This document shows, piece by piece, positions 5,442 to 31,260 of a stretch of 64,000 nt of DNA. A program made the position numbers and the translations under genes. The DNA lies in NCBI GenBank assembly GCA_964538675.1, contig CAZIGM010000002.1:2870-66869 (forward strand), given 5' to 3'. Under the pieces are notes generated by a model. It did no database searches. It saw nothing but the letters and a program-made list of their open reading frames with translations, and was not told the DNA's origin. The first letter of the stretch is position 1. The number at the start of each line of letters is the position of its first letter. This DNA is from an uncultured Bacillaceae bacterium. GTDB lineage: Bacteria; Bacillota; Bacilli; Tepidibacillales; Tepidibacillaceae.

Positions 5442-5444
5442 TAT

Positions 5445-6264: not shown

Positions 6265-6356
6265 CTAAATCTTTATTTTAACTAATTTTTCTTTATTCGG
6301 CAATAACTATACCATATTTAACCGTAAAACTGCAAAAAAAATAGGGGGTAGATCCC

Positions 6357-8161: not shown

Positions 8162-9119
8162 CTTCAAATAATTCTGGGTATAACGCTTTAGCAAGTTCCT
8201 CGAGAGCATCAATTATTCGTGGACCTGGGCGATTTACTAAATCACTATCAATATCATATACCTGATTATATTTAACTGCATCTACATCATGCCATCCCTC
8301 TCGAGTTAAAACATTAATTACAGCATTAGAATCATAGTAACCATAAGTAGTGAAAACAACCTCCGGGTTCTTTTCTATTACCTTTTCTTCACTATATTGA
8401 ACCCAACCCTCATTATCTACGATATTTATCCCACCAGCTTTTTCAATCAATTCATTCATAAATGTATTGGTACCACAAGTCCATAAATCAGATGATACTT
8501 CAACCCAAACCTTTTTTTTATTCTCATCATTAACATTTGATATTTTATTGTCTATTGCTTCTTCCTTCTCTTTCATATCAGCTAGTAATTGTTGAGCTTT
8601 TTCTTGAGAATTAGTTATTACTCCTAAATCCTCAATAGTTTGATAAGCCTCATTTATGCTTTGAGGATTATATTTAACTACTGATATATTTAAGTCTTCA
8701 TAAGATTTTATTAATTCATCATTGTGTGCACCGAAAATAATTAGGTCTGGATTCAAATTTAATGCTTGCTCAATATTTGGGTTTACACCATCTGTAAAAA
8801 CATATTCAACTTTTTCTTGTACATCTATTGGATAATTATCATTAATTGTTACTGCTATTACTTGGTCATCTAGATCTAATTCGTATAATATTTCAGTATT
8901 ACTTGGAAAAAAAGTAATAATTCTTTGTGGTTCAGTAGGAATCGTTACTTCTATATCTCTGTAATCTTTAATAGTTAAAGGATAGATAGTTGTAAGGGTA
9001 TCTTCTAATTGCTCATTATCTCCAACTTGATTTGTATTAGTTGGTGTAGATGTACAACCAGATAAAATACCAAATAATAAAATAATTATTGTTAACCATA
9101 TAAAACTTTTTCTCATCAT
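8154..9119 (-). CDS. BtuF/FhuD-type substrate-binding lipoprotein, probable cobalamin binding
   Basis: Signal peptide with LSGC lipobox. GAGGAG lies 8 nt before ATG 9119. It sits directly downstream of the cobalamin riboswitch. Confidence 0.75.
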   Translation of the reverse strand: MMRKSFIWLTIIILLFGILSGCTSTPTNTNQVGDNEQLEDTLTTIYPLTIKDYRDIEVTIPTEPQRIITFFPSNTEILYELDLDDQVIAVTINDNYPIDVQEKVEYVFTDGVNPNIEQALNLNPDLIIFGAHNDELIKSYEDLNISVVKYNPQSINEAYQTIEDLGVITNSQEKAQQLLADMKEKEEAIDNKISNVNDENKKKVWVEVSSDLWTCGTNTFMNELIEKAGGINIVDNEGWVQYSEEKVIEKNPEVVFTTYGYYDSNAVINVLTREGWHDVDAVKYNQVYDIDSDLVNRPGPRIIDALEELAKALYPELFEDE

Positions 9120-9212
9120 AATATACTCTCCTCGCATAATTCCTTTTTCAATTCAATAGATTTAATGTGCACTATTTACAAACTTAATAAGTGCGGCAAA
9201 CTAACCACTCCC

Positions 9213-9251
9213 AAAATAAAAACCTTCTTACCCTGAGGGATAAAAAGGTTT
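9213..9251 (-). terminator. intrinsic terminator of the riboswitch expression platform
   Basis: Minus strand reads AAACCTTTTTATCCCTCAGGGTAAGAAGGTTTTTATTTT, a stem followed by a T-run. Confidence 0.7.
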
Positions 9252-9295
9252 AATACACATACTTATACCAAATATAGACGTCACTCCTTTCCCTC

Positions 9296-9460
9296 GAAGA
9301 TCTAACATCTTATCATAAACAGGCAGGTCTCCTGACTCTTGGCAATGTATTTCCACGCCTTCCCGTCTTATTCTTAGACAGTGGCATAATGTGGAATACT
9401 TCCAATTACAGTGGCGGGACCGTGTTGGGTTTTCACCAAACTTCCCTTTTATCTTCTAGT
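9296..9460 (-). promoter_or_regulatory. cobalamin (B12) riboswitch aptamer
   Basis: Minus strand reads AGGGAAGTTTGGTGAAAACCCAACACGGTCCCGCCACTG, then GCCACTG, GGGAAGGCG and AGTCAGGAGACCTGCC (B12 box). Closing helix is GAAGAT/ATCTTC. Confidence 0.85.
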
Positions 9461-9552
9461 CACTTAAATACTAAAAGAACCTATTTATTAATTAAGTTAT
9501 GTAATTTTTTTATCATTATATATTATAGTTAAACAATTAACAAGTTTTTCAG

Positions 9553-10092
9553 TTACAAGTCAATGCCTTTAACTGCGGTAATTCCTTTATTATAATAATG
9601 TTTAATAGGATTTATTTCTGATACAAGATCGGCAATATCTATCAATTCCTGTTTGGCTCCTCTTCCTGTAATAACAAGATGAAGGTTATCGGGCTTTGTT
9701 TCTATCAATTCTATAACTTCAGACAAAGGCAATATATCGTCTATTGCAAAATTATTAATAGCTAAAGCACAATTTAATTCATCTAATACTATTAAATCAT
9801 ATTGACCTGACATAACCTTTTCTTTTGCAAACTTCCATGCATTTTTTAAAACTTCACGCTGTTTTTCTATTGTTTTTGTCCATGTAAAGCCAATTCCCAA
9901 CTGCTCTATTTCAACCCCTAATTTTTCTAATGCTTCTTGCTCACCAGAAAAGCCTTCCTTTGCCTTGATAAATTGAAAAAAACCTACTTTCATATTATTA
10001 CCTGCTGCTCTAACGGCCAAACCAATAGCTGATGATGTTTTACCTTTCCCATCTCCAGTATAAATAAGAGTAAGTCCTTTTTTAGTCTTCAT
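9553..10092 (-). CDS. cobO: cob(I)yrinic acid a,c-diamide / corrinoid adenosyltransferase (CobA/CobO/BtuR type)
   Basis: 179 aa with P-loop GDGKGKTSSAIG and LDELNCAL. Confidence 0.85.
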   Translation of the reverse strand: MKTKKGLTLIYTGDGKGKTSSAIGLAVRAAGNNMKVGFFQFIKAKEGFSGEQEALEKLGVEIEQLGIGFTWTKTIEKQREVLKNAWKFAKEKVMSGQYDLIVLDELNCALAINNFAIDDILPLSEVIELIETKPDNLHLVITGRGAKQELIDIADLVSEINPIKHYYNKGITAVKGIDL

Positions 10093-10108
10093 AAATATAT
10101 CCTCCAGT

Positions 10109-11668
10109 TCACTGCTGATTTAACTCATTTAATAATTCCTCAGCCTCTATAAAACTTGGATCAACCTTCAAAGCCATACTTAGAAGATTCATTGCTTGGT
10201 CATAATCTTCATTAAAAATATAGATCAAAGCAAGATTGTAATAAGCCTCTGGAAAATTCGGTTCGCGTTCTAGTGTTATCTCATATTGTTCAATGGCTTG
10301 GTCATAATCGCCTTCTGTTAATAATGTATTAGCATAATAAAAATTAAACATATACTGTTCTGGATATTCATCTACAAGAAAACTGAAAATTTCATGAGCC
10401 GTCTGTGTATTACCTTCTTCTAGTGCTTGTTGCCCTTTAATATAAATAGCTCCGCTTCCTTTAAGATCTTCAGAAATAACACCTAACCAAGTCATTCCAA
10501 CTATAGCTATAAGGACAACTATTGAAATAATACTGATTAGCCATTTTCTTTTCTTATCAGAAGGAAGGTGAATAATTGCTGCTATTATAAAACCACCAAA
10601 TAATCCTCCTATATGTGCATAAATATCTATACTAGATACTGTAAATCCAAACACTATGTTAATAGCAAGAATTGTAATTATATCTTTTCCAATCGTCTTA
10701 AAAAATAAGTCAGGATAAATATATCCAAAATAAAGCAGTGCCCCAAACAATCCAAATATTGCTCCTGATGCACCCGCTGCTACACTACTTGGCGCAAAGA
10801 GAAAGCTTATCAAATTTCCAATAATACCTGCTAACAGGTAGATGGCAATGAATCGAACAGAGCCATATATTTTTTCTGTTAATTTTCCTAAAAAATATAA
10901 TGCCAAATTATTAAAAGCAAAATGAACAAACCCAATATGTAAAAAAATCGGGGTGACAAAACGCCAATATTCACCATTCATTATTAAATATGATTCTTTA
11001 GCACCAAATCTTAATAACACTTCAGTATCGGTGCTCCCTCCACTAAAGGTCATTAATAAAAATATTATTGCGTTTATAATTATTAATGTATAAGTCAAAA
11101 TTGGTTTACCAAAATTAAAAATATTTATAATATTATTATAGCGATTTTCTTGTACATCACTTATTTCTTCAATCATTTTCTCAGCTTCATTTGGACTTTC
11201 TTCATGTATGTACTTAACAAATGGATCAACCTTTAATTTATCTTCGTCAAAGATATCATCAGGTATTCCAATCTTTCCACTCTCTAAATCAATATAACCA
11301 GAAAATATTTCTATTCCCTTATCTGTATTTCTTGAACTTTGTGAAATTATCTCATGAACTTCATTTGAAGGAGTAGAATTAAAAATATATAGATTAATAA
11401 ATCGTAAATGCTTTCCTTTTAATTGTTTAAGTATTTCTTTTGCTTTACTCTTTACTTGTAATAGATCGTTATTGATATGGTTAGGCCATACATAATCGAT
11501 TGGAATTAATCGTATATATATGTGTTCACCCTTTGAATTTTTAATTAAATTAATTGTTAGACCTTCACGGTTATCAATAGATGATTTCTCTCTTAAATTG
11601 AGCAAAGAAAATTCGTAATCTTTTACCAAATTATTTGCTACTGTCCATATATAATCTTTTAATAACAT
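10109..11668 (-). CDS. gluP: rhomboid intramembrane serine protease with C-terminal TPR repeats (GluP/YqgP-like)
   Basis: Catalytic Ser motif GASGAIFGL and His motif HIGGLFGG in a multi-TM core. TPR-like C-terminus (YYNLALIY...). Confidence 0.85.
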   Translation of the reverse strand: MLLKDYIWTVANNLVKDYEFSLLNLREKSSIDNREGLTINLIKNSKGEHIYIRLIPIDYVWPNHINNDLLQVKSKAKEILKQLKGKHLRFINLYIFNSTPSNEVHEIISQSSRNTDKGIEIFSGYIDLESGKIGIPDDIFDEDKLKVDPFVKYIHEESPNEAEKMIEEISDVQENRYNNIINIFNFGKPILTYTLIIINAIIFLLMTFSGGSTDTEVLLRFGAKESYLIMNGEYWRFVTPIFLHIGFVHFAFNNLALYFLGKLTEKIYGSVRFIAIYLLAGIIGNLISFLFAPSSVAAGASGAIFGLFGALLYFGYIYPDLFFKTIGKDIITILAINIVFGFTVSSIDIYAHIGGLFGGFIIAAIIHLPSDKKRKWLISIISIVVLIAIVGMTWLGVISEDLKGSGAIYIKGQQALEEGNTQTAHEIFSFLVDEYPEQYMFNFYYANTLLTEGDYDQAIEQYEITLEREPNFPEAYYNLALIYIFNEDYDQAMNLLSMALKVDPSFIEAEELLNELNQQ

Positions 11669-18795: not shown

Positions 18796-19182
18796 ATGAA
18801 AAACTCCAAGATACTTATTATTGAAGATGAACACTCTATATCCGAAATCCTAACTTATAAATTAAAAAAAGAGAAATTTGAAGTAATGGGTGCGAAAACT
18901 GGACAAGAAGGTTTAATTGTAATACCTTACTTTAAACCAGACCTTATTTTACTAGATATTAAACTTCCTGATATTAGCGGATTTGATATCTGCAAAGAGA
19001 TAAAAGATAACTATCAAACTCCTATAATTATGTTAACAGCTAGAATCAATTTAAAGGATATAAGTTATGGATTAGCCCTTGGAGCAGAAGATTATATTAC
19101 AAAGCCTTTCGACATCAATGATGTTTTAGAAAGAATTAACTTAGTATTAGATAGAAGGAAAAATACTTCATGTTTTAACTAA
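18796..19182 (+). CDS. stand-alone response-regulator receiver domain protein (CheY/Spo0F-like)
   Basis: 128 aa with acidic pocket IIEDE, phospho-acceptor LILLDIKLPD, LTAR and KPF. No output domain. RBS is GAGGGTG. Confidence 0.85.
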   Translation: MKNSKILIIEDEHSISEILTYKLKKEKFEVMGAKTGQEGLIVIPYFKPDLILLDIKLPDISGFDICKEIKDNYQTPIIMLTARINLKDISYGLALGAEDYITKPFDINDVLERINLVLDRRKNTSCFN

Positions 19183-19207
19183 ACTAAATACTTAGAAATT
19201 AATAACT

Positions 19208-19549
19208 ATGAGAAAAAATATTATTTTTCATAAGGAGGTGATTCTTATAAATACATCCTTAACAAAGAAAATAAACCATAGCAAAAATAACTCTCAAAAA
19301 CAGAAGGTTGAGGATATTGAAAAAAATATTTATGAAGAAAAATTGAAAGAAGAATTTTTCAATAATATATCTCATGAAATAAAAACTCCTATTACAATAA
19401 TCTTAGGTTATGCTCAACTATTAAAGGAAGAATACTATAGCTGTAATGGAATTCACTCTATAGCAATAGATTATATAGAATCCGAAAGCAAAAAACTAAA
19501 TTCAATAGTAGATGAAATTATTGAAAAAGCCAGATATAGTAAATATTAA
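19208..19549 (+). CDS. DHp (HisKA) -only mini-protein, paralog 1
   Basis: H-box FFNNISHEIKTPITIILGYAQLLKEE. The ORF stops about 55 aa after the His with no ATP-binding domain. Start is uncertain because AAGGAGG at 19232 is followed by no canonical start codon. Confidence 0.6.
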   Translation: MRKNIIFHKEVILINTSLTKKINHSKNNSQKQKVEDIEKNIYEEKLKEEFFNNISHEIKTPITIILGYAQLLKEEYYSCNGIHSIAIDYIESESKKLNSIVDEIIEKARYSKY

Positions 19550-19554
19550 AAACC

Positions 19555-19588
19555 CAGGTATGCGGTTTTAAAAAACTGCATACCTTTG
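19555..19588 (+). terminator. hairpin terminator after DHp paralog 1
   Basis: AGGTATGC-14 nt loop-GCATACCT followed by TTGT. The T-run is weak. Confidence 0.45.
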
Positions 19589-19635
19589 TATATATGTAAG
19601 AAAATCTTTAAAATGGTAAATTAAATAATATATGT

Positions 19636-19663
19636 TTGCAATTTACCAATATAATGATATAAT
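19636..19663 (+). promoter_or_regulatory. sigma-A-like promoter (TTGCAA-16 nt-TGaTATAAT)
   Basis: Consensus-like elements upstream of DHp paralog 2. Confidence 0.45.
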
Positions 19664-19725
19664 TTTTTTTAGCTTTTTTAATAATAAAGATTAAAACTGA
19701 TATGTTCAATGAGGAGATAGAAATA

Positions 19726-20025
19726 GTGAATATAGCTAAAAAACATAAATTTGCAAAAACTAAAATTACTTCATTTAACAAGCCTATTAATAAAAAGAAA
19801 ATAATAGTTTCAGAAAACTATAAAAAAGAATTTTTTAATAACATATCTCATGAAATTAAGACCCCACTAACTATAATCTTAGGCTACGCACAACTTTTAA
19901 AAGAAGAGAATTTCAGCTCTGAAAGACTGTATTTAGAAGCTGTTGAAAATATAGAGCATGAAAGCATAAGATTAAATTCATTAATAAATAATCTTATAGA
20001 AAAAGCAAAACAAACTAAAAATTAA
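19726..20025 (+). CDS. DHp (HisKA) -only mini-protein, paralog 2
   Basis: H-box FFNNISHEIKTPLTIILGYAQLLKEE. GTG 19726 lies 9 nt after GAGGAG, whereas the ORF-track ATG 19702 lacks an RBS. A terminator follows. Confidence 0.65.
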   Translation: MNIAKKHKFAKTKITSFNKPINKKKIIVSENYKKEFFNNISHEIKTPLTIILGYAQLLKEENFSSERLYLEAVENIEHESIRLNSLINNLIEKAKQTKN

Positions 20026-20067
20026 AAGAAGATGATTACTGCATATCTCGCAGAATCATCTTCTTTT
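20026..20067 (+). terminator. intrinsic terminator after DHp paralog 2
   Basis: 12-bp stem AAGAAGATGATT / AATCATCTTCTT followed by TT. Confidence 0.6.
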
Positions 20068-20219
20068 GCATTTATTCTCACTCATTTTTTTCTCCTTCTT
20101 TCTTCCCCTATGCCATACACTTTGTCTTTCTGAAACGTAATGAAGAATCTTTTTTTCTTGATAGATTATTCGGAAAAGCCTCAGATTAACTTATTTATGG
20201 AAAAATACATAATTAATGT

Positions 20220-20247
20220 TTGCATTCACCTTATTAAATGGTATAAT
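20220..20247 (+). promoter_or_regulatory. sigma-A-like promoter (TTGCAT-16 nt-TGgTATAAT)
   Basis: Consensus-like elements at the head of leader L2. Confidence 0.45.
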
Positions 20248-20254
20248 TTTCTAA

Positions 20255-20482
20255 GGGAAATTAAAAAGTTGCCATGACCCTTGAGTGTTGGAAGCACTCA
20301 AAGGCTCATGCAGGTGAATTGGCACCTACACGTGAGACATATTGTCTCCACAGCAACGATGTTATTATATACTATATTTGGCATTTCCTCAATCAACAAT
20401 AACATTAGTGCATGTGTAGGGTTAAACCTGCGCATGCACTTTTTAATTTCCCTCCAAAAAAAATATTTGGAGGGAAATTTAT
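20255..20482 (+). promoter_or_regulatory. structured ~230-nt leader L2 (homolog of L1)
   Basis: Block homology to L1. Terminator at 20408-20445. An extra hairpin TTCCCTCCAAA/TTTGGAGGGAA (20448-20476) covers the SD. Confidence 0.5.
20408..20445 (+). terminator. leader L2 intrinsic terminator
   Basis: GTGCATGTG-loop-CGCATGCAC followed by TTTTT. Two stem positions co-vary with the L1 hairpin. Confidence 0.6.
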
Positions 20483-20594
20483 ATGCAACAAGCTAGAATA
20501 CTCGTCATTGAAGGACTACTTCACAAAACCTTTTGATATTAACGAATTACTAAAGATAATTAAAAAGACAGTAAAACAAAGTTGCTTATGCTAG
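20483..20594 (+). pseudogene. receiver-domain gene remnant with large internal out-of-frame deletion
   Basis: Starts MQQARILVIE (receiver N-terminus). One frame over it continues DYFTKPFDINELLKIIKK (receiver C-terminus). About 85 codons are missing in between. Confidence 0.7.
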
Positions 20595-20647
20595 TTCAAT
20601 TAATTGAAATATTATTTGTATAGGTTACTAGATTAGGAGATAAGAGA

Positions 20648-20890
20648 ATGTTTATTAATGAGAAAGATAATAAAATTATTATGGAAAAATATAAAGAGGA
20701 GTTTTTCAACATTCTAGCGCATGAACTCAAAACCCCACTTACAATAATTATAGGATATGCCCAGTTGTTAAAAGAAGAAGAATTTAGTTCAAAGGAAACT
20801 TATCTAAAAGCTGTTAGCAATATAGAATATGAAAGCAAGAAGCTTAACTCTATAATAGATGAGCTTATAAAGAAGGCAAAACAATTTTAA
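20648..20890 (+). CDS. DHp (HisKA) -only mini-protein, paralog 3
   Basis: 80 aa with H-box FFNILAHELKTPLTIIIGYAQLLKEE. AGGAG lies 8 nt upstream of the ATG. Confidence 0.7.
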   Translation: MFINEKDNKIIMEKYKEEFFNILAHELKTPLTIIIGYAQLLKEEEFSSKETYLKAVSNIEYESKKLNSIIDELIKKAKQF

Positions 20891-20980: not shown

Positions 20981-21184
20981 GGAGATACACGGTATCATTG
21001 CGAACAAAGTGAGCTTACCACTTTAGTCAGAAATCATGGATTAAGGCGCTGTCGCTATTTACGATTAGAAGGTGCAAAAATTCATATAACATTAGCAAAC
21101 ACAGCTTGCAACATAATAATGATGGTGAATTTGTTAAAATCAAAGGACCAACCTAGCTTTACTCTGCTAAGAAAAGCAGGCTAG
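20981..21184 (+). pseudogene. C-terminal remnant of an IS1182/IS5-type DDE transposase
   Basis: Translates to GDTRYHCEQSELTTLVRNHGLRRCRYLRLEGAKIHITLANTACNIIMMVNLL. The HGLRR.RY.GL.K pattern is typical of that transposase tail. No upstream catalytic part is present. Confidence 0.6.
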
Positions 21185-21799
21185 ACATGGATAATGGATA
21201 AATATTAGGTGAAATTCACCATATATTAAACTCCTCTATCTTTGATTTTATTATGAATATCAATTTCTATTAAAATGAATTAATTTAAATGAATATTTAT
21301 TCAATTTATAAGGAAACTGCGTAAAAAAAGCCCTTTTCTAAGCAGTTTCCCCGGTACCTTTGCGAATGGAAATGAGCTTGTTAGTCTTCATAATTTTATC
21401 CTTTTGATAGTTTTTTTAAAATAATTATCATTAATGATTAACAAAGACATTTAATTTAAGGTGTCTCCACATGGCTCCCGACGTTGATTTTGATGTCTTG
21501 AGCGTTTTTTTTACACAGTTCCGTACGTGGACACTTTTCTACGCTATTTTTCACATTTTGCTCGTTCGCAGAAACATGTCCACTATATATGCGTATTTAG
21601 GGAACAATTCATACAATATATTGAGTGTTCAATTTTGATGTTTTTCCGTAAGTAAAATGGCACAATAGGTTCACCTTGATGTCTTGATTGCAATTTGTTA
21701 TTATGCCGTTCTCGGCAAAATGTCCACAGTGCTATTGTGGTTAAGCCCGTTCTCGGAAACAAGTCAATAGTTGAATCCAACTGAGAACGGTAAGGTAGT

Positions 21800-23080
21800 T
21801 TAAAATCCAGGGGTGCACTTCAGGATATATTCTGCATCTGTAAGCCGTTGTTCTGCCTCTTCACATAGCGTATCGTATGTAGTTATTCTTATATCACTCC
21901 GATTATTAGTCAGTAACCGCCTCCATTGATATATTGGGATTGACGGTTTTTTGCCAATAATCAGATTTATTTCTGGCTCGTAATATTCAATTCCTTCATC
22001 TGCCAAAGTCCTTTTTACCTTATCTTGTTCCAATAAACGTTTGTAGTTCTTCACTTGCGTAATAGCGTCGTGGACAGCAGAAACAAACATAGGAACATCC
22101 GATACCGACTTAGTTAAATCAATATTGGAACGCTTTAACTCAAAGAGTTCCCAATCACCTATAATTGTATTTCTCATAAAAATATCTAACCTACGGTCCT
22201 TTTTCCCTATGTCTAAATCAGGGAATCTTAGCCATAACTGTGTTGAAATCCTATCATATTTTCCTCCAAATATTTCCTGGTAATGTTGCCGCAAGAATTC
22301 CTCTAAATGCCTTTCTTTTGCATCGCTAAAAATCAACTTATTGAATTCAACCAGAACATCATTAGCTGCGATAACCTTTTTGAGGGTAGGTTGAATCAGG
22401 GACATTGACTTTCTTGTCACGCCGGAAAATTCATTTTCAGCTATAAATCGAGATGTATGAATACCACTGTCCGAAAGACTGATACATATCCCGTCATCGT
22501 TTTCCGTTAAAAAATTGCGAAGATTGTTCCGCACAACCGCCTCGTTTTTTGCTGATGCTTTTATGAACGTGTTTATATTTCCAGCTCCAATTCGATATGT
22601 ACTGTTTGGTAACATAGAAGTTAGTTGTTTTTCATACAACGAAAGTAATTCTTCATCATCAATGCCCAATTTCTCAGTATCAAAGTTATTTATTGCATAT
22701 AAAGTGACACCGTCAACAGGAAGCCAAAGATCATACTTCCTTTTAGATATGTATTTTGACATCAAATCCCGCAACTCTGCCAAGTCAAGATTATCGGGTG
22801 TAAATTTCTCAAATACCGTACTAGGTGCATAACACATAAGAAATGCGTCTGAACTTTGGTAGAATCTCTCTGGCGGGCATTCAAAAATTCTATCATCAAT
22901 ATGGGATAACTTTTGAATTTTTCCACTATAAAGTTCAGACTCATTAAGAAGTCTTTGAAAAAACACCTCAAAAGCGTTCCTGTCAAATCTTCCGATAATC
23001 GATTTTATCAAACCATCATCCATTTTTACCTCCTGAATTATCCAATTCACCAACCAATCTTCGAAGTCGCTAAAATACAT
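21800..23080 (-). CDS. DUF4263 (Shedu SduA-type) PD-(D/E)xK nuclease-domain protein
   Basis: 426 aa. C-terminal blocks are HLEEFLRQH, RLDIFMR, WELFELKRS, AITQVKNY, NLIIGKK and ITTYDTL. The N-terminal ~270 aa is unassigned. Confidence 0.7.
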   Translation of the reverse strand: MYFSDFEDWLVNWIIQEVKMDDGLIKSIIGRFDRNAFEVFFQRLLNESELYSGKIQKLSHIDDRIFECPPERFYQSSDAFLMCYAPSTVFEKFTPDNLDLAELRDLMSKYISKRKYDLWLPVDGVTLYAINNFDTEKLGIDDEELLSLYEKQLTSMLPNSTYRIGAGNINTFIKASAKNEAVVRNNLRNFLTENDDGICISLSDSGIHTSRFIAENEFSGVTRKSMSLIQPTLKKVIAANDVLVEFNKLIFSDAKERHLEEFLRQHYQEIFGGKYDRISTQLWLRFPDLDIGKKDRRLDIFMRNTIIGDWELFELKRSNIDLTKSVSDVPMFVSAVHDAITQVKNYKRLLEQDKVKRTLADEGIEYYEPEINLIIGKKPSIPIYQWRRLLTNNRSDIRITTYDTLCEEAEQRLTDAEYILKCTPGF

Positions 23081-23171
23081 ATACTCGTACCCCTGATCAT
23101 TCTTTTAGTTGAATAAATTTGAATTCTGAATCTAAGGGTAAAACTAATTCTGATTCCATATTTCTTGGATA

Positions 23172-25031
23172 TCAATCTCTCTTTATCTGGTAATACTCCA
23201 ACACTTCACGCACATTCTTTTCCTGACAATGTTCAATATCTTCGTCTGCAAATCGGTTGCTCGCAATTATATCTTTTGCAACTTGCAATTGTTTCTCATC
23301 GAGAGCCGTAAATTTATCCCACCATTCGTTCACAAGATTACTTTCATCGTCATAATGACTTCGATATCTATCCGCAAGTCGAGTCCGAAGTTCTTCGTCA
23401 TACTTTCGGCGATATATAATAAATGCTTCTGGCATCCAAAGAATTTTATTATATTCATCAATATCTTTCCCAAACGCTTCTTCAAAAAATGCTTTGCCAC
23501 GTCCGATTTTACCTTTTGTAGCATTAAGTACAGCTTGTATTGCACGAATAAACTTACGGTTCCAGTTCTTTCCGATGTAATCACGATTGCGGAAATAAAT
23601 TGGGTCGTCAATCGGATGATACTTCATAGGAAATGAGTAAATTGTGACACCAAGTTCTTCACAAAGATCTATGTTAATCCTCATTCGATAATATAGTTCA
23701 TCCGGCTTGTCTTGATAGTTATAAAGTAGATAGTTTGAAAGGTTACTAATACCGTGTTTAGCTGCTGTTTTTATTGCCTTTATATAAATATTGCTCATAG
23801 AATAATGGTCAAATGCTATACGTAGCGGGCGAATATTAATTTCGGATAGTTTTGCCATTTTTGCATCCGTGACCAATCTTGCATCAATACCTTGATTAAA
23901 ATCAATATAGCGTGCACGTTTCACTTTTTTAAAAATTTTATCATACAATGGGCGAACAGTATCATCAAAAGCAAGGATACTATCTTTTGTTGCGGCTTCA
24001 GTGTATAGTAAATTTAACTTTTCCCGTTTGCGATAGAAGTTGCCAGCGTCTTCTTCGCTCATTTTTTTTGAAAGACGATCATATATTCCAATCATTTTTT
24101 TTCTATACGCTCTGATATTATAACTAGCTTTCAGATTATCTATAGTGAAGCTATACTCGCTTGGCGGCATATACATTGCACTTTTCGCAAATCCACATTC
24201 TTTAATTTCATCAATAATTATATCAAAACATTTTGATGCAAAAACGTTATTGTCCATTAAAAGCAGATCCTTTTGAGCACCAAAGCGTTCTTCTGTCTCC
24301 TTAATTTGTTGTTTTAGAGCTATATAATCATTATAGTCCGGTTCGAGTCTCGGCACAGCACAAAATTCACACTTATTTACACAGCCCCTTGTCATATAAC
24401 CAAAGTACGCATTATTTGCAGGATACTTGTAATCTATCTCATCAAGAATAGAATAATCTAACGGCAATTCATCAATAATATATTGATTGTCATTATCTAG
24501 AATTCCAGGTGTGTTTAACAAACCTTTATGAGGATCAATTCCCGTTTCTTTTTTAATTTCTTCTGGCAAAATGGTTGACGCAATACCTCCCACGAGCATT
24601 CTACCGTCGTCTTTGCAAAATTTCTTTGCATAGTTGACTGTTTCAATTGTTTTATTCCAATAAAAGCTAAACAGCGTAGTAATGCCTACTACGTCATATT
24701 TTGGAAAGTCCTCAGCCTTGTACCGTAATCGATACACTTTAATTTTATTTTCCAACTCACTATTTTGAAAGTCCGGGATAGCATCTAAGGGAGCATATTT
24801 CCCAGTCTTAATGTGTTCAATCAGTTTAGGAAAGTACTTACCAAGAGAAGCATCTCCAATTTCATCAAAAAACTCCTCACAGAGGAGCCTTGCAGCAAGC
24901 TCTTTTAGATTTCCCTTGAAAAATCTTACATCATCTTCAAGACGACGATAGTATGTGGCTAATTTCATTAGCCCCATAGGTGGATATTTGTTTTTATAAT
25001 CTGGCTCAATTAGCAACACTCTTCGATTCAT
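23172..25031 (-). CDS. radical SAM protein with N-terminal B12-binding-like domain (class B-like)
   Basis: 619 aa with CxxxCxxC motif TRGCVNKCEFCAV. The N-terminus LLIEPDYKNKYPPMGLMKLATY resembles class B radical SAM enzymes. The ATG overlaps the upstream stop (ATGA). Confidence 0.7.
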   Translation of the reverse strand: MNRRVLLIEPDYKNKYPPMGLMKLATYYRRLEDDVRFFKGNLKELAARLLCEEFFDEIGDASLGKYFPKLIEHIKTGKYAPLDAIPDFQNSELENKIKVYRLRYKAEDFPKYDVVGITTLFSFYWNKTIETVNYAKKFCKDDGRMLVGGIASTILPEEIKKETGIDPHKGLLNTPGILDNDNQYIIDELPLDYSILDEIDYKYPANNAYFGYMTRGCVNKCEFCAVPRLEPDYNDYIALKQQIKETEERFGAQKDLLLMDNNVFASKCFDIIIDEIKECGFAKSAMYMPPSEYSFTIDNLKASYNIRAYRKKMIGIYDRLSKKMSEEDAGNFYRKREKLNLLYTEAATKDSILAFDDTVRPLYDKIFKKVKRARYIDFNQGIDARLVTDAKMAKLSEINIRPLRIAFDHYSMSNIYIKAIKTAAKHGISNLSNYLLYNYQDKPDELYYRMRINIDLCEELGVTIYSFPMKYHPIDDPIYFRNRDYIGKNWNRKFIRAIQAVLNATKGKIGRGKAFFEEAFGKDIDEYNKILWMPEAFIIYRRKYDEELRTRLADRYRSHYDDESNLVNEWWDKFTALDEKQLQVAKDIIASNRFADEDIEHCQEKNVREVLEYYQIKRD

Positions 25032-26596
25032 TGTAGTTCGTCCTCGATCTTCTGTATTATGGTTTCAGCAGTCTCTTTGTTAGTAGATGAGACAATAATT
25101 CCAAATATTTTTGAAATAAGTTTCCGTTCTTTTTTACTATAGGTTGATAGCTTATCCGTTCTCCATGGAATTTTAGTATCCTTTGTAATGTTTGATTCAG
25201 GTGGTTTTACACTTGTCACTATAGGATTTTTTTGATTTCGCTCCGTTTCAATACGGTTAATTAAGCGCCCCATGACGTTATTATCATTTCCATCAGCTTT
25301 TTTCTTTTTCTTTTCGATATTTTTTTTTGCTTCTTCTGCCTTAGATTTTGCTTTCTTAATTTCTGCAAATTCGGCTTCTCTATGCGCGGTATCAACAAAT
25401 ACGCCTTTTGCTTCTTTTTCCTTGAACTCCGCTTCTTTCTTAGCCAAGAAATCTATCTTATTAAACGCACTATTAATGGCAGAACCGCTATAATATGTAC
25501 TTTTGAGTTCATCATTAAAATATTGTTTAAGTTCTCGTTCAAATTGATTGCGTGTTTCATTTTCATTAAAATAATCTCTCTGAGAATTCGGTATAAGGTT
25601 TTTCGCCACAGCAAAAACTTCACCGATAAAATAATGATGCCCCCTGTCTTCTTTGAATAGTTTTTGCAATGCGTTGTCGTCACCTATCTGAATATTTTCC
25701 TTACGCAGACGAAGGCCACGCATTTGGCAATCCTTATGAATAGCCGCCTTAAAAACAGATACTCCCCACCAAATCCACGCGAGAAGGTTACCATCTACAT
25801 CTCTAATATCTTTGAATTCAATAGAAAATATTTCATCATCACCTTTAGCATGAGTTTTATACTTTGTCTTATATTTTTTTACCACTGTTTCACCATTCAG
25901 AGTGATATCATATTCATCAATATTATACTTTATTTCATCGGCATGTTTATGAATCTCCTTTCGGAATATAAAAGTGTTTATATAAGGAACAGGAGCCACA
26001 AAAGATAGATATTCCTTTATTTGTGCAAAATCAAGCAAGTCAGTGTTTGCATCATTAATTCCAACAAGTTCAACCTTAAACCAATGTTCATTGGGATCCG
26101 CCTTGTCTTCTGTCGTAAATTCATTTATAGAACGAAGAACATCACTTGCAGTATATTTTTCACCCCTTCCATTCGCAACAATCATTTCACGCATTTTTTG
26201 AGCATTGCAACACATAGTTGAGATGATAGTTTCGCCTTTTGCAGTCGATGTAAAAACCAATTCTCTACAATAAGCAAGCCCACATAACCTACCAATTCCA
26301 CGAAAGCCCTTATCCTCACCTATTTTTTTATCAGAATCGGCAATGTTACCTAAAGTTTTCTGGAAATCAGCAGCCGGAATCCCTGTTGCATTATCTTCTA
26401 TACTGATAATTCGTTTATCAGAATCAAGCCAGATATGAATACGCCCCTCACCTTGAAGCAAGAGTCCTTCTCGTTCTGCTTTGTCAATTTGATCACATGC
26501 GTTCTGTATATATTCGCGATAAATAACTCTTGAATCTTGGTACATTCCTGTCGTAAGATTTTCTAATATATTTACACCAAAAACATATTTGTCCAT
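25028..26596 (-). CDS. GHKL (Bergerat-fold, HATPase_c_3/MORC-like) ATPase
   Basis: 522 aa with N box EYIQNACDQ, G1 IEDNATGI and G2 GFRGIGRLCG. A Lys/Glu-rich coiled coil lies toward the C-terminus. RBS is GAGAGGAG. Confidence 0.75.
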   Translation of the reverse strand: MDKYVFGVNILENLTTGMYQDSRVIYREYIQNACDQIDKAEREGLLLQGEGRIHIWLDSDKRIISIEDNATGIPAADFQKTLGNIADSDKKIGEDKGFRGIGRLCGLAYCRELVFTSTAKGETIISTMCCNAQKMREMIVANGRGEKYTASDVLRSINEFTTEDKADPNEHWFKVELVGINDANTDLLDFAQIKEYLSFVAPVPYINTFIFRKEIHKHADEIKYNIDEYDITLNGETVVKKYKTKYKTHAKGDDEIFSIEFKDIRDVDGNLLAWIWWGVSVFKAAIHKDCQMRGLRLRKENIQIGDDNALQKLFKEDRGHHYFIGEVFAVAKNLIPNSQRDYFNENETRNQFERELKQYFNDELKSTYYSGSAINSAFNKIDFLAKKEAEFKEKEAKGVFVDTAHREAEFAEIKKAKSKAEEAKKNIEKKKKKADGNDNNVMGRLINRIETERNQKNPIVTSVKPPESNITKDTKIPWRTDKLSTYSKKERKLISKIFGIIVSSTNKETAETIIQKIEDELQ

Positions 26597-26625
26597 TAAC
26601 TCACTCCTCTCACTTTAATTGTTTG

Positions 26626-28350
26626 TCAGTCTTTGAATTGCTTATATATTGGTTTTGGAAATTTGATTTTCAGTAAGGAGCGAAAAATTGGATTTTGAAT
26701 TAGATAATCCCCCTGTTCCAATCTGGTTAACATGTTTTTATATGTACTCGGTAAACTACCATAATCCTTAGTAGCAGTTTCAATAGAGTTTGTTCGACCA
26801 TATGCATGAGTGGAACAATTTCCAGTAACTCGCTGATGTATATTGGAACGGAACTGTTCCGCACCAAAAAGCACAATGCCCAGCGAGCGACCACGTTCTG
26901 TAACATCTAGAATTTCTCTCAAAATTGGCGATGTCTTTGGTGTCTCTTTCGAGGCGTATTTATTGAGTTCGTCAATGAATACAATGATTCTCGATGGTGG
27001 ATTAACACCATCTTCTCCGTCATATTCACCCAATTTTAAATTGTAAATTGTACGCACCGCATCACCAAATACAAATGCTTGTTTATCCTCTGGAAGTTTA
27101 GCAACATCAATAACACAAACCTCATTTTTACTTATATGTTTCAACGCATCTGCCAAACGGCATTCATGCTTGCTTGGGTCAGGACGGTTTGCAAACATAT
27201 CATCATTTTTAGTTGCTTTGTTGATAATACGTTTAAACTTTCTCCAACTGAGCACAGATATTTCATTAGAAACCCTTTGCTGACCTTTTGTTGAAGGTTG
27301 CGACCTTTGGGAAAGCTCGTTTACCTTATCTCTAAAGTCTTGCCATGTTACAATGTTTCCACCACCAAAATCAGGGTCCATATCATCAATAATTTTGCTG
27401 ATTATCGACTCCATTGTTTGTTGTGGGTCATCAACATCTGCAAACAGCATTTCAAGACTTTCTTTATCATCTTCATACGAATATTTGAACTTTTCAAGTT
27501 GTTGATAATCCATATATACCTTCACATCATCTACGCCAAGATAAGTACTTCTTTTTGCTGATGTATTGCTCGAAAACGGAATATAGTATTTGACGTTCTT
27601 AAACGGTTCTGTTGATAGTTTAAGAATTTCATAGTCAGCAAAAACCCTTTCTTTTTCGCCTGGTTTGTCGGCAATAAAGTCATTTGCTCTATCAATTGCC
27701 ATAAGATCTTTGCCTTTGACATTAAAAATAACAAATGCAACACTATCATCGGCATCATCAACTTTTATGTAATGGTCCTGAATAGCTTTCAACAGAAACA
27801 TAGCGTACGAAGTCTTTGATGCAAGTCCTGAAATACCTGAGATATTTAGATGTGCTCCCTCAGGACCCAATATGAATTTAGAGTTGAGATTCACCGGCAA
27901 TATAACCTCATCATTGGTTCCTTCATACATCTTCAGCGAACCACAAACAAGAGGATTCTGAACTTTATCAAGACCTAATGCCATAGTTATTTCTTCAGCT
28001 GTAGCAAGATATACTGGAGCATTATTATGAACAGGAGTATAAAGGTTTTTGTCGTTGAAAGATATTGCAGCTTCAGCATAGTTCATCCTTACACGTAAAG
28101 TCGATTCTTCTACATTAACATCCCCGAAGTCGCTGGAAATGAAATTTGTTAAAAAGCTCTGAGCATCGGTAATATGAGAGATATTTTCAATCACACCAAA
28201 TGAAAACGAGTTGTCAATATGCTTAACTTTAACAATGTCGAATGCATGAAGCTTCAAATCTGAGTCTGTCCAAAAATTAAACTTATCCATTGTAGTCGGC
28301 GTTTTTTCAATGGCAAGTACACGTCCTATAAGTTTGTTTTTACTATTCAT
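26626..28350 (-). CDS. HerA/FtsK-clade ATPase (HerA-like)
   Basis: 574 aa with an N-terminal HAS-barrel-like segment, a deviant P-loop NISGISGLASKTSY, Walker B IIVFIDELNKY and RGRSLGIVLFGAEQ. GGAGG RBS. Confidence 0.7.
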   Translation of the reverse strand: MNSKNKLIGRVLAIEKTPTTMDKFNFWTDSDLKLHAFDIVKVKHIDNSFSFGVIENISHITDAQSFLTNFISSDFGDVNVEESTLRVRMNYAEAAISFNDKNLYTPVHNNAPVYLATAEEITMALGLDKVQNPLVCGSLKMYEGTNDEVILPVNLNSKFILGPEGAHLNISGISGLASKTSYAMFLLKAIQDHYIKVDDADDSVAFVIFNVKGKDLMAIDRANDFIADKPGEKERVFADYEILKLSTEPFKNVKYYIPFSSNTSAKRSTYLGVDDVKVYMDYQQLEKFKYSYEDDKESLEMLFADVDDPQQTMESIISKIIDDMDPDFGGGNIVTWQDFRDKVNELSQRSQPSTKGQQRVSNEISVLSWRKFKRIINKATKNDDMFANRPDPSKHECRLADALKHISKNEVCVIDVAKLPEDKQAFVFGDAVRTIYNLKLGEYDGEDGVNPPSRIIVFIDELNKYASKETPKTSPILREILDVTERGRSLGIVLFGAEQFRSNIHQRVTGNCSTHAYGRTNSIETATKDYGSLPSTYKNMLTRLEQGDYLIQNPIFRSLLKIKFPKPIYKQFKD

Positions 28351-28365
28351 TATTTTTACTCCTCC

Positions 28366-29532
28366 TTAAAATAGATGCAGAAAACTTTCTGTACTCAAAT
28401 ATTTTGACTTCACAAAAGACTCAGTAAGATATATAGGATAGATGTGATTCGCCCAACGCAAATCCGAACCATAGCAAACCGGATTACGTTCGTTTATCAG
28501 GTACGCACTAAGCACATCTACAAGGTCACTATCTATGCCATTATCGACATCTTCTTGCGTCACAAGTATTTTTTCTACTTTCAATATTCCATCAAAAGGA
28601 GTTCGAGTCCGTTTCTTATCCCTAAGCCGAATGTACCACACCGCAAACTGGATATCATTACCCAAAAAATCACTAACAAAACAGGCCACAGGCGTACGGT
28701 GATACAGTGGTAAGTCAGCAATAAATCCAGGATTTGATTTCCCATTAATATCCAAACATGTTTCTGGGTTAAAATTCTTTGAGACCCCTAGTACCCAACT
28801 GTAATTGTTTTTGAACATCTGGTATTTCCTTTTATCGGCCTTGTCCTCTTTGGTTGGCTTATATTCAAGCGAACCATCTTTAACCAAATAGTTATTTTGG
28901 TTTAACTTGCCCTCACGAACAAGCTCGGCGACCAGTTCTTTTTCACGTTCTATCATACGGTCTTGGATACACGCAGTTCCCCTATCTTCAAACTTCTTGT
29001 CTGTATTTTTTGCTGTTTTATATGGCAATATCGTAGAAAACACTATACCTACCCGTTTTAACTCTGCACACTCATTTAGCTTTTTGGCTGTTGCATTAAA
29101 AAAACCCGGTATCCCATCGGCATCAGCAATATCTGGCAATGACAATACTATCTCTCGTTTGAACTTCTCTGGAATGACTGTTTTATTAACTCTACGACAA
29201 CAGCCAACTCCAATTTGTCCAGCGATTACAGGATAAATTACACTTCTGCCATTAGACACTTTATAGGCAATATCATCAACTTTAAACACCCTACGAGAAC
29301 CATCTAAAAAATAAGCGAGTAACTGCTCATCCCTTGCCGCAAGTTTTTTTCTTAAATCTTCAAGAGAAATATATTTGCGGTGTGGAGTGGTTTCAGCTGT
29401 CTTTTTCCAGATGATCGAATTATCTCCATAATCTATAAATGGGCGTTCAACGTAATCTAGTCCATATTTATGAGCCTTATAGCTTTTACCTCCAGTTTCT
29501 CTCGCCAAGACAGTCATTATTTTATCTGCCAT
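28366..29532 (-). CDS. NurA-like RNase-H-fold nuclease
   Basis: 388 aa from ATG 29532, with AGGAGG 6 nt upstream. The ORF-track start at 29619 has no RBS. Motifs are FLDGSRR, IEREKE and LVKDGSLEY. It sits immediately upstream of the HerA-like gene. Confidence 0.6.
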   Translation of the reverse strand: MADKIMTVLARETGGKSYKAHKYGLDYVERPFIDYGDNSIIWKKTAETTPHRKYISLEDLRKKLAARDEQLLAYFLDGSRRVFKVDDIAYKVSNGRSVIYPVIAGQIGVGCCRRVNKTVIPEKFKREIVLSLPDIADADGIPGFFNATAKKLNECAELKRVGIVFSTILPYKTAKNTDKKFEDRGTACIQDRMIEREKELVAELVREGKLNQNNYLVKDGSLEYKPTKEDKADKRKYQMFKNNYSWVLGVSKNFNPETCLDINGKSNPGFIADLPLYHRTPVACFVSDFLGNDIQFAVWYIRLRDKKRTRTPFDGILKVEKILVTQEDVDNGIDSDLVDVLSAYLINERNPVCYGSDLRWANHIYPIYLTESFVKSKYLSTESFLHLF

Positions 29533-29556
29533 GTATTTCCTCCTATGATTGACATA

Positions 29557-29585
29557 ATTATCATTTTTTGACGAATAGGTGTCGA
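29557..29585 (-). promoter_or_regulatory. candidate sigma-A promoter of the five-gene operon (TCGACA-17 nt-GATAAT)
   Basis: Read on the minus strand, about 25-50 nt upstream of the NurA-like start. A TG lies one nt before the -10. Confidence 0.35.
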
Positions 29586-30245
29586 GTAAAAAACTTACAT
29601 TTGTAAACCCGTACACCAATACTAATTAATTTATCAATTGTAGTGATTTTAGACATATCACTATTTCTTTTATCACCATGCTACCTATGTCATCGCTCAT
29701 GATGAATTCAATCATATTCACACTGCTATAATCCCCAGTTGTCCAAATATCATTTTTGCAATAATAACCTTACACTAACCGCAGTTAGAAATTATATAGC
29801 GAAACAAAGAAGCTTTCATACCGTCTGTAGCGCCGCACTCTTTCAACGACAAAATCTACGAATCAAGGAACAGCATCTAGGCGCATATTCCCCTCGCACT
29901 TCTAAAAATTTCATAATAGTAGGCGCCATGGACATATATAAAAAGGCATGATGGCCCTTGCATTCATTCAGTTTTTGCTTTCCATATTATCACCGCATCA
30001 AAGGTATCCTTCGAAATACTTGCTATTATACAATTTGGAAGGCAATTCTAACAATTAGTGTAAATATAACATATTTATTCACGATTATAAATTTAAAAAT
30101 TACGAAAACGCGAACATTATTTTAAAATAATCAAAAGACTAATAATACGCACCAATTTTACATCTATCCCATTTCCTCAAGATCATGCATGTTATCTAAT
30201 ATGCCAACTCAAACCCCACTTCATTTTACGGTCCTTTTTCTTTCC

Positions 30246-30557
30246 CTAGATATATTCTCTCAAACGAATTTTAGCACTTTGGGGAAAATAGACAAAATGA
30301 ATAAATCCAACAAACCAAATAAAATTAGGGCTAACTTTCTTTGTTTTAATCTCTAGTTTTTTTAGCACTAATAATTTATCTTTTATATTCTTTTTTTTTA
30401 TTATTGGATTTCCATTCTCGTATCTAACCCTATGATAAATATTCGTTATATTATTTAATTCATTTATTATTTGAATATGCTGTATATTTATCATTCCACT
30501 TATTTCATTAGACATATTTATATTATTAATTTCTATCTGTCTAGTTTTTTTTACCAT
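30246..30557 (-). pseudogene. fragment paralogous to the C-terminus of the DUF4129 protein (33155-34387)
   Basis: EINNINMSNEISGMINIQHIQIINELNNITNIYHRVRYENGNPIIKKK aligns with IDINNSVTSSDIRREINIKHPNVSNEINEITDIYQKIRYGNENPTISKK. The TM-rich N-terminal part is missing. Confidence 0.55.
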
Positions 30558-30842
30558 ATTTCCATTGTATACATAATTTAAATATCTATCTACGTTTTGA
30601 ATCTATTGATTCTACTTTTTGATAGAAGTCCACATAAAAAAATGTAAAATTAAGCTTAAATAATTTACTTTTTCTATTAAATTTGTCTTTATTTTATATT
30701 GTAGAAGTTATTCCAATATTTTTTATCTTAAGATTAAGATAATTATTCCATTTAATTATAACCCTCCAATTACTCCGTATGGATATTTAGTAATGAAAAT
30801 AATAAGTTATAAAAACATTCTAAAAAGAGAGGAGCCGATTTT

Positions 30843-31004
30843 ATGAGTGCACAAGTTAATTGTCCAAAATATATTGCTGGTGAATTAAAAAAATTCAAAT
30901 CTTTTAAAAGGGTAGCCAAATTCTACCCCGAGCTCAATTCTGAATTTGATAAAAGAACGAAGTGTTTTATAGATTGTAATTTCACTTTGACACATTTACT
31001 ATAA
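30843..31004 (+). CDS. small hypothetical ORF (53 aa)
   Basis: ATG lies 7 nt after AGAGAGGAG. It is Cys-containing and basic. There is no family recognition and it is below the ORF-track length cutoff. Confidence 0.25.
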   Translation: MSAQVNCPKYIAGELKKFKSFKRVAKFYPELNSEFDKRTKCFIDCNFTLTHLL

Positions 31005-31029
31005 TGCTTTATTTTTTTATTTAAGTACT

Positions 31030-31260
31030 CTAATCCACTGTAATATTCTTTAATTTCCCATCTTTCTTTTCATCTACTGGCTTCTTCTCTAAATATTCTC
31101 CTGATATAGTATGAATGGCTTTGATGAACTCGTCTTGATGTTCTTTTATATTTGTTCTAACAGGTTCAGGCATTTCTTCTAAGATAACATCTGCTATTCT
31201 TAATTTAATTCGAAGTAAATTGATTATCATTTCTTCATTTATCATTAGTTTTACCTCCAA
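31030..31260 (-). CDS. small hypothetical protein downstream of ArsA-like gene
   Basis: 76-aa ORF overlapping the ArsA-like stop. No recognisable motif. Confidence 0.4.
   Translation of the reverse strand: MEVKLMINEEMIINLLRIKLRIADVILEEMPEPVRTNIKEHQDEFIKAIHTISGEYLEKKPVDEKKDGKLKNITVD

Follow-up and report, generated by a model that had tools for sequence, protein, structure and literature searches.

Are five adjacent genes, read from one strand and separated by short gaps, the parts of a single system? This question is raised by a locus in DNA from an uncultured Bacillaceae bacterium (assembly GCA_964538675.1, contig CAZIGM010000002.1, positions 2,870 to 66,869 of the forward strand; the whole stretch analysed, 64,000 nucleotides, is referred to below as the window). 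The five genes, all on the minus strand, encode a putative divergent NurA-family nuclease (gene 1, 388 residues, 28366..29532), a HerA-clade ATPase (gene 2, 574 residues, 26626..28350), an Hsp90-like GHKL (Bergerat-fold) ATPase (gene 3, 522 residues, 25028..26596), a radical S-adenosylmethionine (SAM) enzyme with an N-terminal domain of the B12-binding type (gene 4, 619 residues, 23172..25031), and a Shedu nuclease of the PD-(D/E)xK type (gene 5, DUF4263/SduA_C, 426 residues, 21800..23080). An earlier note, made from the letters of the sequence, had taken them for a five-gene operon and a candidate anti-mobile-element system of five parts. We report that comparison with other loci indicates that the locus is composed of two independent modules, a four-gene cassette (23133-29655) and an ordinary single-gene Shedu (21786-23131).

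Two modules at one locus

The gene layout given in the earlier note was recovered by a check of the open reading frames (ORFs): five same-strand genes with junctions of 15 nt, 29 nt, a 4-nt overlap and 91 nt, the overlap being an ATGA through which the start of gene 4 is joined to the stop of gene 3. The proposal that the genes form one five-part system did not survive, since gene 5 is absent from the other cassette loci, the locus falls into distinct homology blocks, and the gene downstream of gene 4 is variable. Relatives of gene 5 were detected by tblastn in none of 84 other cassette loci. Searches of the 1,793 ORFs of 127 loci with phmmer and hmmsearch (E ≤ 1) returned none except in the same genome and in one further locus, L127. 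The position downstream of the radical SAM gene is occupied, depending on the locus, by a Schlafen/AlbA_2 gene, AAA_24, a YhcG nuclease, an HD protein, a transporter or other genes.

Nucleotide homology places the limit between the two modules to within a few positions. A block of 6.5 kb starting at window position 29655 shows 90% nucleotide identity to two Desulfosporosinus genomes (L001 and L005) and contains a leader of about 120 nt followed by genes 1 to 4. Homology stops at 23157 (L001 and a further locus, L002) or at 23133 (L005), that is 15 to 39 nt past the stop codon of gene 4, and these limits define the 3' end of the transferable cassette block (23133..23171, minus strand). The Shedu block (21786..23131, minus strand) consists of gene 5 and the 51 nt upstream of it; at the nucleotide level it shares 92.4% identity with L127, a contig from another sample, where it stands in another gene context, behind an insertion sequence (IS) element. 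The two blocks abut at 23131-23133 and the 'operon' is therefore two mobile modules arranged head to tail. A 'five-gene operon' seen in one genome can thus prove to be two adjoining mobile modules.

That Shedu is the fifth component of a single system appears very improbable in the light of these results. Such a system would account for the common strand, the gap of 91 nt without a terminator-like site between genes 4 and 5, and the similar GC content of the Shedu gene and the cassette, and the only other near-identical copy of Shedu does lie within 7 kb of a radical SAM-GHKL pair, in L127. Yet Shedu is missing at every other cassette locus, its own block is separate from that of the cassette, and in L127 an IS element and other genes part it from the radical SAM-GHKL pair. 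Moreover, Shedu is established as a self-sufficient single-gene system. L127 (Logan SRR28692089 contig, 1-11242) carries the sole other near-identical Shedu copy (90% amino acid identity). About 6.8 kb upstream of that copy lies a different radical SAM (711 residues) and GHKL (465 residues) pair with a ParB-like protein of 550 residues; the IS standing between them is of the DDE_Tnp_1 type. A metagenome scan for Shedu relatives gave one distant match, on a 1.8-kb contig.

Genes 1 to 4, by contrast with gene 5, recur together. More than 6,400 homologues of gene 4 are present in the protein collection, and a pattern scan for relatives of the radical SAM enzyme recovered 228 GTDB species. The four genes keep their order and their common strand in 63 of the 70 genome loci with enough upstream DNA. 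Of 24 IMG/VR loci, 13 show this arrangement, at identities of the radical SAM protein as low as 35-40%, and the order recurs around a NurA relative about 26% identical to gene 1. The junction between genes 3 and 4 is an overlap or a spacing of at most 18 nt in most loci. Hosts of the cassette belong to the Bacillota, Bacteroidota, Synergistota, Chlorobiota, Chloroflexota, Planctomycetota, Elusimicrobiota, Desulfobacterota and Spirochaetota, and include a Holosporales bacterium and a Methanomicrobiales archaeon. At least 11 phyla are represented in all, nearly all of the hosts being anaerobes. Co-occurrence of the homologous genes in other genomes, which the earlier note had proposed to check, is therefore observed for genes 1 to 4, on mobile elements and beside defence genes, and not for gene 5.

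Predicted activities of the encoded proteins

The five family assignments proposed from the sequence were all supported, that of gene 1 through a family profile and that of gene 4 through structure. Single-sequence searches of gene 1 against Pfam, NCBIfam, PADLOC, PHROG and the PDB gave no match (PADLOC-DB v2.0.0, with models dated 2023, was used throughout with a match threshold of E ≤ 0.01). A profile of 45 diverse members of the gene 1 family had Deinococcus radiodurans NurA as its top PDB match (7f6d_H, E = 6.8e-5, about 100 residues); a narrow profile reached the same chain at E = 0.23 only. The Pfam family NurA (PF09376) was the top family among distant members, although 3 of the 45 matched it, with a best E value of 1.1e-3. 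A Heliomicrobium protein 78% identical to gene 1 is labelled 'NurA domain-containing' in UniRef. Furthermore, gene 1 is the immediate upstream neighbour of the HerA gene wherever all four genes are retained (63 of 70 loci). Residues D77, E197, D219 and H363, conserved without exception in 51 of 51 sequences, presumably correspond to the active site of NurA. Gene 1 is accepted here as a putative divergent NurA. Its AlphaFold2 model, obtained from a shallow alignment of 76-92% identical sequences, had a predicted local distance difference test score (pLDDT) of 38.7, too low to support a fold.

The product of gene 2 matched D. radiodurans HerA in the PDB (7f6d_B, phmmer, E = 2.7e-39), and neither its Walker A motif (G172..K179-T180) nor its Walker B motif (D460-E461) varies among the 51 sequences compared. 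PADLOC returned two partial matches, to mad8 (1.6e-9) and HerA (2.6e-3). By homology and motifs, gene 2 belongs to the HerA/FtsK clade. Gene 3 matched Pfam HATPase_c_3 (E = 4e-9, 37 bits for a cut-off of 25). The closest PDB sequences are the N-terminal domains of HtpG, TRAP1 and Hsp90 (best E = 3.3e-5), and NCBIfam gave weak matches to HtpG and top6B. The N box (E28, N32), G1 (D68, G72) and G2 (G97-G102) motifs are invariant in 51 of 51 sequences and D35 is conserved in 50 of 51, which, with the Pfam match, identifies gene 3 as a GHKL (Bergerat-fold) ATPase. The last 130 residues or so, a Lys/Glu-rich C-terminal region, form the most variable stretch of this protein.

Gene 4 displays the motif C217-x3-C221-x2-C224, invariant in 51 of 51 sequences, and fell below the Pfam cut-offs for Radical_SAM (4.5e-4, 20.9 bits for a cut-off of 29.5) and B12-binding (2.5e-3). 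A sequence profile detected no relative of gene 4 in the PDB, where matches were obtained by structure search only. The AlphaFold2 model, based on an alignment of 45 sequences, had a pLDDT of 86.4 and a predicted TM-score (pTM) of 0.84. Foldseek comparison of this model with the PDB returned, at a probability of 1.0, TsrM (6wte, 1.6e-6), MgmA (9ccb), AprD4 (6fd2) and OxsB (5ul2), the best of the structural matches being methylases. In BFVD, the model matched phage COG1032 and B12-binding-like radical SAM proteins; gene 4 also matched phrog_9298 at 1.7e-33. The predicted structure thus supports assignment of gene 4 to the class of the radical SAM superfamily that carries a B12-binding domain.

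Mean pairwise identity was highest for HerA (0.70), intermediate for NurA (0.59) and the radical SAM protein (0.58), and lowest for the GHKL ATPase (0.49). The motifs of all four proteins being invariant in the 51 sequences, the four enzymes are under purifying selection.

Gene 5 matched Pfam SduA_C (PF14082; 1.4e-8, 35.5 bits for a cut-off of 27) and five PADLOC SduA models (6e-8 to 2.6e-3).

Expression signals, genomic setting and relatives

The longest ORF of gene 1 begins at a TTG at position 29619. The length of 388 residues is counted from the ATG at 29532, the equivalent of which is the start point of the gene 1 homologues. Ribosome-binding sites precede gene 1 (AGGAGG), gene 2 (AAGGAGGAG) and gene 3 (GAGAGGAG); weaker sites stand before gene 4 (GAGGA) and gene 5 (GGGG). 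The upstream promoter-like site was recovered at 29585-29557 with 10 of 12 matches. Taken alone it is weak evidence, because such sites are common in the AT-rich DNA of this region (57 found for 38.7 +/- 6.7 expected). The site falls within the leader of about 120 nt (29533..29655, minus strand), which also holds the AGGAGG of gene 1 and is conserved along with the cassette by nucleotide homology to Desulfosporosinus. A scan confirmed the lack of intergenic terminator-like sites among the five genes; such sites bracket the gene set at 29959-29942 and 21220-21208. No Rfam family matched the region, hence no riboswitch, including a cobalamin riboswitch, was found there.

Both modules lie inside an island of raised GC content (21000..30200). 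GC is 0.34-0.40 across approximately 21,000-30,200, compared with 0.23-0.28 in the flanks, and GC at third codon positions (GC3) is 0.26-0.34 in the island and 0.18-0.21 in neighbouring host genes. The description of the region as an accessory patch was borne out by these anomalies. Together with the block 90% identical to Desulfosporosinus, they support recent horizontal transfer of the cassette. The GC drop from 0.34 to 0.245 near 30,200 probably marks the boundary of the island. A contig from the same sample (L085) covers positions 21300-30196. Flanking genes are, on one side, a ROK kinase, cytochrome b561, a response regulator and three HisKA fragments and, on the other, ArsA and MarR. The HisKA pieces account for the adjacent gene fragments mentioned in the earlier note. 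The IS remnant that the note had placed there was not confirmed, since blastn of both island edges against plasmids was empty and the short ORFs were uninformative. No tRNA gene and no flanking direct repeats marked an integration site in the region.

Two stretches at the edges of the island may be described further. At 18796-20890, three short ORFs (113, 107 and 80 residues) come after the response-regulator ORF, and the HisKA domain was the only one found in each; they resemble histidine-kinase genes that have been fragmented or duplicated. No convincing gene was seen at 29656-31030, a stretch of some 1.4 kb on the upstream side of the leader. The sole ORF in this stretch (30246-30557) is AT-rich, encodes 103 residues and has no family match.

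The setting of the cassette in other genomes is that of mobile cargo. In Bacteroidales, it is carried by an integrative mobilizable element encoding an integrase, Mob_Pre, a PriCT_2 primase and an excisionase-like helix-turn-helix protein. The adjoining cargo slot varies (RloB/AAA_21, reverse transcriptases and others) on several elements in which the backbone is constant. In Firmicutes, the neighbours include MobA/MobL relaxases, serine recombinases, integrases, ParAB, SNF2/DUF429 and HD genes. A survey of 148 flanking ORFs of 17 loci, made as plain counts without statistical control, comprised serine recombinases (6), Schlafen/AlbA_2 proteins (4), AbiEii, Old/GajA/AriA-like ATPases, pAgo, type I methyltransferases and Fic proteins. 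This neighbourhood is typical of defence cargo and excludes a housekeeping role. The locus is horizontally acquired: as the earlier note had supposed, the cassette, which is patchy in its distribution and borne by mobile elements, is not a core housekeeping locus.

A Schlafen gene combining AlbA_2 and HATPase_c_4 domains, in some cases with a winged helix-turn-helix, recurs beside the cassette (L086-L090, 2488-4242; L007, 11884-13230; and similar loci). It is located upstream in Bacteroidales elements and downstream in Lachnospiraceae, and could be a regulator or further cargo.

The family of the radical SAM enzyme extends beyond the four-gene cassette. On alphaproteobacterial plasmids, tblastn detected radical SAM proteins 36-41% identical to gene 4, encoded beside 'DGQHR domain' proteins. 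The order is SNF2 helicase and ParB_N protein (where present), DndB-like protein (PF14072), radical SAM and GHKL, with an adjacent PIN_8 nuclease and a second GHKL ATPase; the GHKL protein beside the radical SAM enzyme on Rhizobium plasmids is 31% identical to gene 3 (E = 6e-58). The DndB-like/radical SAM/GHKL architecture was seen in L096 (Rhizobium pR132505), L097 (Novosphingobium pNL1) and L099 (Rhizobium pCC511_1), and again in L120-L123 and L126, on conjugative plasmids and IMG/VR contigs. With its PIN_8 nuclease, this architecture also appears to be undescribed.

Other members differ in their partners. Four IMG/VR loci (L114, L116, L117 and L118) encode, directly upstream of a 541-residue radical SAM homologue, a protein of 480-680 residues with a ParB-like N-terminal motif (NPDNARF...DGNRRLTSLKL); no NurA, HerA or GHKL gene was detectable in these loci. 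The temperate Marinitoga camini virus 1 (L098, KP836355, 5902-9728) carries adjacent genes for NurA (5e-17 to gene 1), HerA (6e-89 to gene 2) and a compact radical SAM protein of 360 residues (4e-23 to gene 4), in an accessory region near resolvase and repressor genes. Bacteroides phage BI-TP1 (L102, 5761-6678) encodes a 305-residue phrog_9298 radical SAM protein among DNA methyltransferases, a PAPS reductase and an ASCH protein, a neighbourhood that has the look of a typical phage DNA-modification or anti-restriction region. Finally, homologues of gene 4 with 55-58% identity stand alone, without the other three genes, in the Synergistales loci L033 (10001-11806) and L041 (9950-11803) and also in L053 and L057. 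Those of L033 and L041 adjoin clpB and are followed by a tricarboxylate transporter and by AAA_24, respectively. The solitary genes may be remnants of the cassette or encode an enzyme acting alone. Compared across these loci, the radical SAM enzyme emerges as the hub of the family, its partners being DNA-clamp-type NTPases (GHKL, DndB-like or ParB-like) and its nuclease-ATPase modules being interchangeable.

Proposed function and known systems

What, then, might the four-gene cassette do? The conserved motifs and the company that it keeps make a defence role probable. We tentatively read it as an anti-mobile-element system, directed against phage or plasmid and built of two sub-modules, with Shedu independent of it; the locus as a whole would then be a small defence island. 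HerA and NurA would form the degradative arm, a hexameric translocase feeding DNA to the nuclease. The GHKL ATPase and the radical SAM enzyme, which are probably translationally coupled, would make up one DNA-directed enzyme in which the former would act as an ATP-gated DNA clamp or specificity subunit and the latter would alter DNA chemically; whether DNA is the substrate of the radical SAM enzyme we regard as an even question. The likeliest alteration would be a self-mark, for example of the C-methyl type, which would spare host DNA from HerA-NurA in the manner of Dnd and Dpd. This logic, akin to that of modification and restriction, is favoured with some hesitation, because the distant relatives have a Dnd/Dpd-like layout, because clamp-radical SAM pairs and solitary radical SAM genes occur without nucleases, and because the structural neighbours of gene 4 are methylase-like.

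Several observations weigh against this interpretation. No target-recognition or hypervariable domain is evident, and the four proteins are well conserved, which is unusual for sequence-specific restriction-modification; nor does NurA-HerA come with a recognisable reader of a modification. The GHKL-radical SAM pair is not obligatory, since the Marinitoga phage version has no GHKL gene and some radical SAM genes are solitary. For the partners in L114 and L116-118, the case for ParB consists of the motif and one weak pairwise match (E = 1e-3), and PDB searches, including those with a profile, gave no ParB support. Cobalamin binding by gene 4 cannot be inferred from the modelled fold: its N-terminal domain resembles both B12 users (TsrM and OxsB) and AprD4, an enzyme that shares this domain and works without B12. 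The plain counts of the flank survey and the arrangement in L127, which may reflect a defence-island coincidence or a loose affinity of Shedu for radical SAM-GHKL modules, belong with these points.

The main alternative keeps the same four genes and replaces self-marking by a sensor/effector logic; it strikes us as rather unlikely. The radical SAM enzyme would damage or tag invading DNA, or make a small-molecule signal, and so license the substrates of HerA-NurA. The outcome would be direct immunity or abortive infection, as for Sir2-HerA and DUF4297-HerA. Known HerA defence systems act as activated supramolecular effector complexes, and the lack of a specificity domain or hypervariable region in the cassette is in keeping with such a mode of action. 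The clamp-radical SAM pairs of L114 and L116-118, which have no detectable nuclease, may themselves be effectors, and Ophion provides a case of radical SAM defence, other than viperin, that interferes with nucleic acids. However, the DndB-like and ParB-like partners and the swappable nuclease-ATPase modules look more like modification-restriction, the radical SAM enzyme finds its best structural matches among methylases, and solitary chromosomal radical SAM genes are easier to explain if the enzyme is harmless.

Less likely still is that the cassette is a repair, recombination or maintenance module which serves its mobile elements rather than host defence. HerA-NurA would resect DNA ends, and the radical SAM enzyme would repair or modify DNA or shield the DNA of the element from host restriction. 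Spore photoproduct lyase is a precedent for a DNA-repairing radical SAM enzyme. Canonical HerA-NurA does act in end resection and repair in D. radiodurans and archaea, the cassette is found on integrative and mobilizable elements, related genes occur on a temperate phage, and a related phage radical SAM gene lies inside a methyltransferase cluster of the anti-restriction type. We consider this reading improbable nonetheless: Mre11/Rad50 or other repair partners are lacking, the distribution is patchy and driven by horizontal transfer, and the cassette occupies variable cargo slots beside bona fide defence genes instead of replication or transfer cores, with neighbouring cargo that changes on several elements while the backbone remains the same. 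Further down stands the five-component system including Shedu, weighed above. That the radical SAM enzyme is metabolic, modifying natural products, peptides or lipids, and linked to the other genes incidentally is scarcely credible, for although most characterised B12-type radical SAM enzymes modify peptides, proteins or small molecules and gene 4 has a trace NCBIfam match to a lipid-biosynthesis B12/radical SAM family, the order of the four genes persists across at least 11 phyla at identities as low as about 27-40%, the genes overlapping or being closely packed, the neighbourhoods share no conserved gene for a precursor peptide, a transporter or biosynthesis, and every alternative partner is DNA-associated.

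The self-marking reading admits a bolder form, which we put forward as an unlikely, though real, possibility. A radical SAM enzyme loaded by a clamp of the GHKL, ParB or DndB type would install an undescribed DNA modification by which interchangeable nuclease-ATPase modules recognise 'self', these modules being NurA-HerA in the present cassette and PIN_8-GHKL in Alphaproteobacteria. The mark would be radical-mediated, possibly cobalamin-dependent, and placed at an unactivated carbon. If true, this would define a new class of modification-restriction immunity present in bacteria, archaea, plasmids and phages.

The four-gene cassette is apparently unnamed. PADLOC-DB assigned it to no named system, in agreement with the earlier note, as genes 1, 3 and 4 had no match and gene 2 gave the partial mad8 and HerA matches. 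In NCBI, the proteins of the window and their close relatives bear the names 'hypothetical protein' or 'ATP-binding protein'. Full-text literature searches, the coverage of which is thin for subscription journals, found no description of the cassette. Nor is it described in work on the reappraisal of phosphorothioates, BREX diversity, archaeal dark matter, ProPhylo, MADS or modularity networks (Ophion). To our knowledge, no earlier work connects nucleic-acid immunity with the chemistry of a B12-type radical SAM enzyme combined with an Hsp90-like ATPase. Should the cassette serve in defence, it would add a widespread system, known from at least 11 phyla and abundant in Bacteroidales and Firmicutes of the gut and rumen, it would extend the HerA defence family to the ancestral HerA-NurA pair, and it would offer a concrete place to seek a new enzymatic DNA modification or lesion. 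The natural variants (DndB/ParB-radical SAM-GHKL, PIN_8-GHKL and the phage NurA-HerA-radical SAM version) would allow the parts devoted to sensing, marking and killing to be dissected.

Among known systems, Shedu (SduA, DUF4263) is the one to which gene 5 itself belongs, as a neighbour and not a component of the cassette. Gene 5 shares the D...E-x-K motif (LDIF...FELK) of this family and differs from it in the 250 N-terminal residues, which have no match; the subtype is rare. Gene 4 shares with the COG1032 enzymes TsrM, MgmA, OxsB and AprD4 the succession of a Rossmann-like N-terminal domain of the B12 type and a radical SAM barrel, as well as the CxxxCxxC motif. Identity is only 9-12%, TM-scores are 0.28-0.37, and gene 4 adds large helical insertions and a C-terminal helical domain.

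The end-resection complex of D. radiodurans (PDB 7F6D) is formed by homologues of genes 1 and 2, which are adjacent and retain conserved motifs. Unlike that complex, the pair described here lies in an operon with GHKL and radical SAM genes, is mobile and patchy, lacks Mre11/Rad50, and includes a NurA too divergent for Pfam. Sir2-HerA and DUF4297-HerA, which also occur in defence islands or on mobile elements, likewise place the gene of a HerA-clade ATPase beside that of a degradative effector; in the cassette, the effector would be the putative NurA, two further enzymes are present, and the PADLOC HerA model is marginal on gene 2 (2.6e-3). Membership of MADS was considered and rejected, the mad8 match being partial and confined to the P-loop region and no methyltransferase being present.

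Radical SAM enzymes are essential parts of known anti-phage cassettes. The earlier note named them in defence as viperins; a restriction to viperins is made outdated by the publication of Ophion and HXS, although these are architecturally unrelated to the cassette. Viperin acts alone, Ophion has PHP and PRTase components, and HXS has a peptide maturase and an HxS-repeat effector. Their radical SAM proteins belong to other subfamilies, and none of these systems combines them with a B12-type domain, a GHKL ATPase or HerA-NurA.

There is a likeness in layout to Dnd and Dpd. Distant radical SAM-GHKL relatives are encoded beside DndB-like (PF14072), ParB_N and SNF2 proteins and a separate nuclease-ATPase, which is the same two-module layout. 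Membership of Dnd or Dpd was rejected: the DndB/DpdB-like component and the DndACDE or DpdA set that it requires are absent from the window, as are Ssp genes, there is no DndB-like gene in the cassette itself, and the likeness is one of layout only. The chemistry of the cassette would differ from that of these systems in being based on a radical SAM enzyme. We rate the cassette as one of the multi-gene NTPase-nuclease conflict systems carried by mobile elements.

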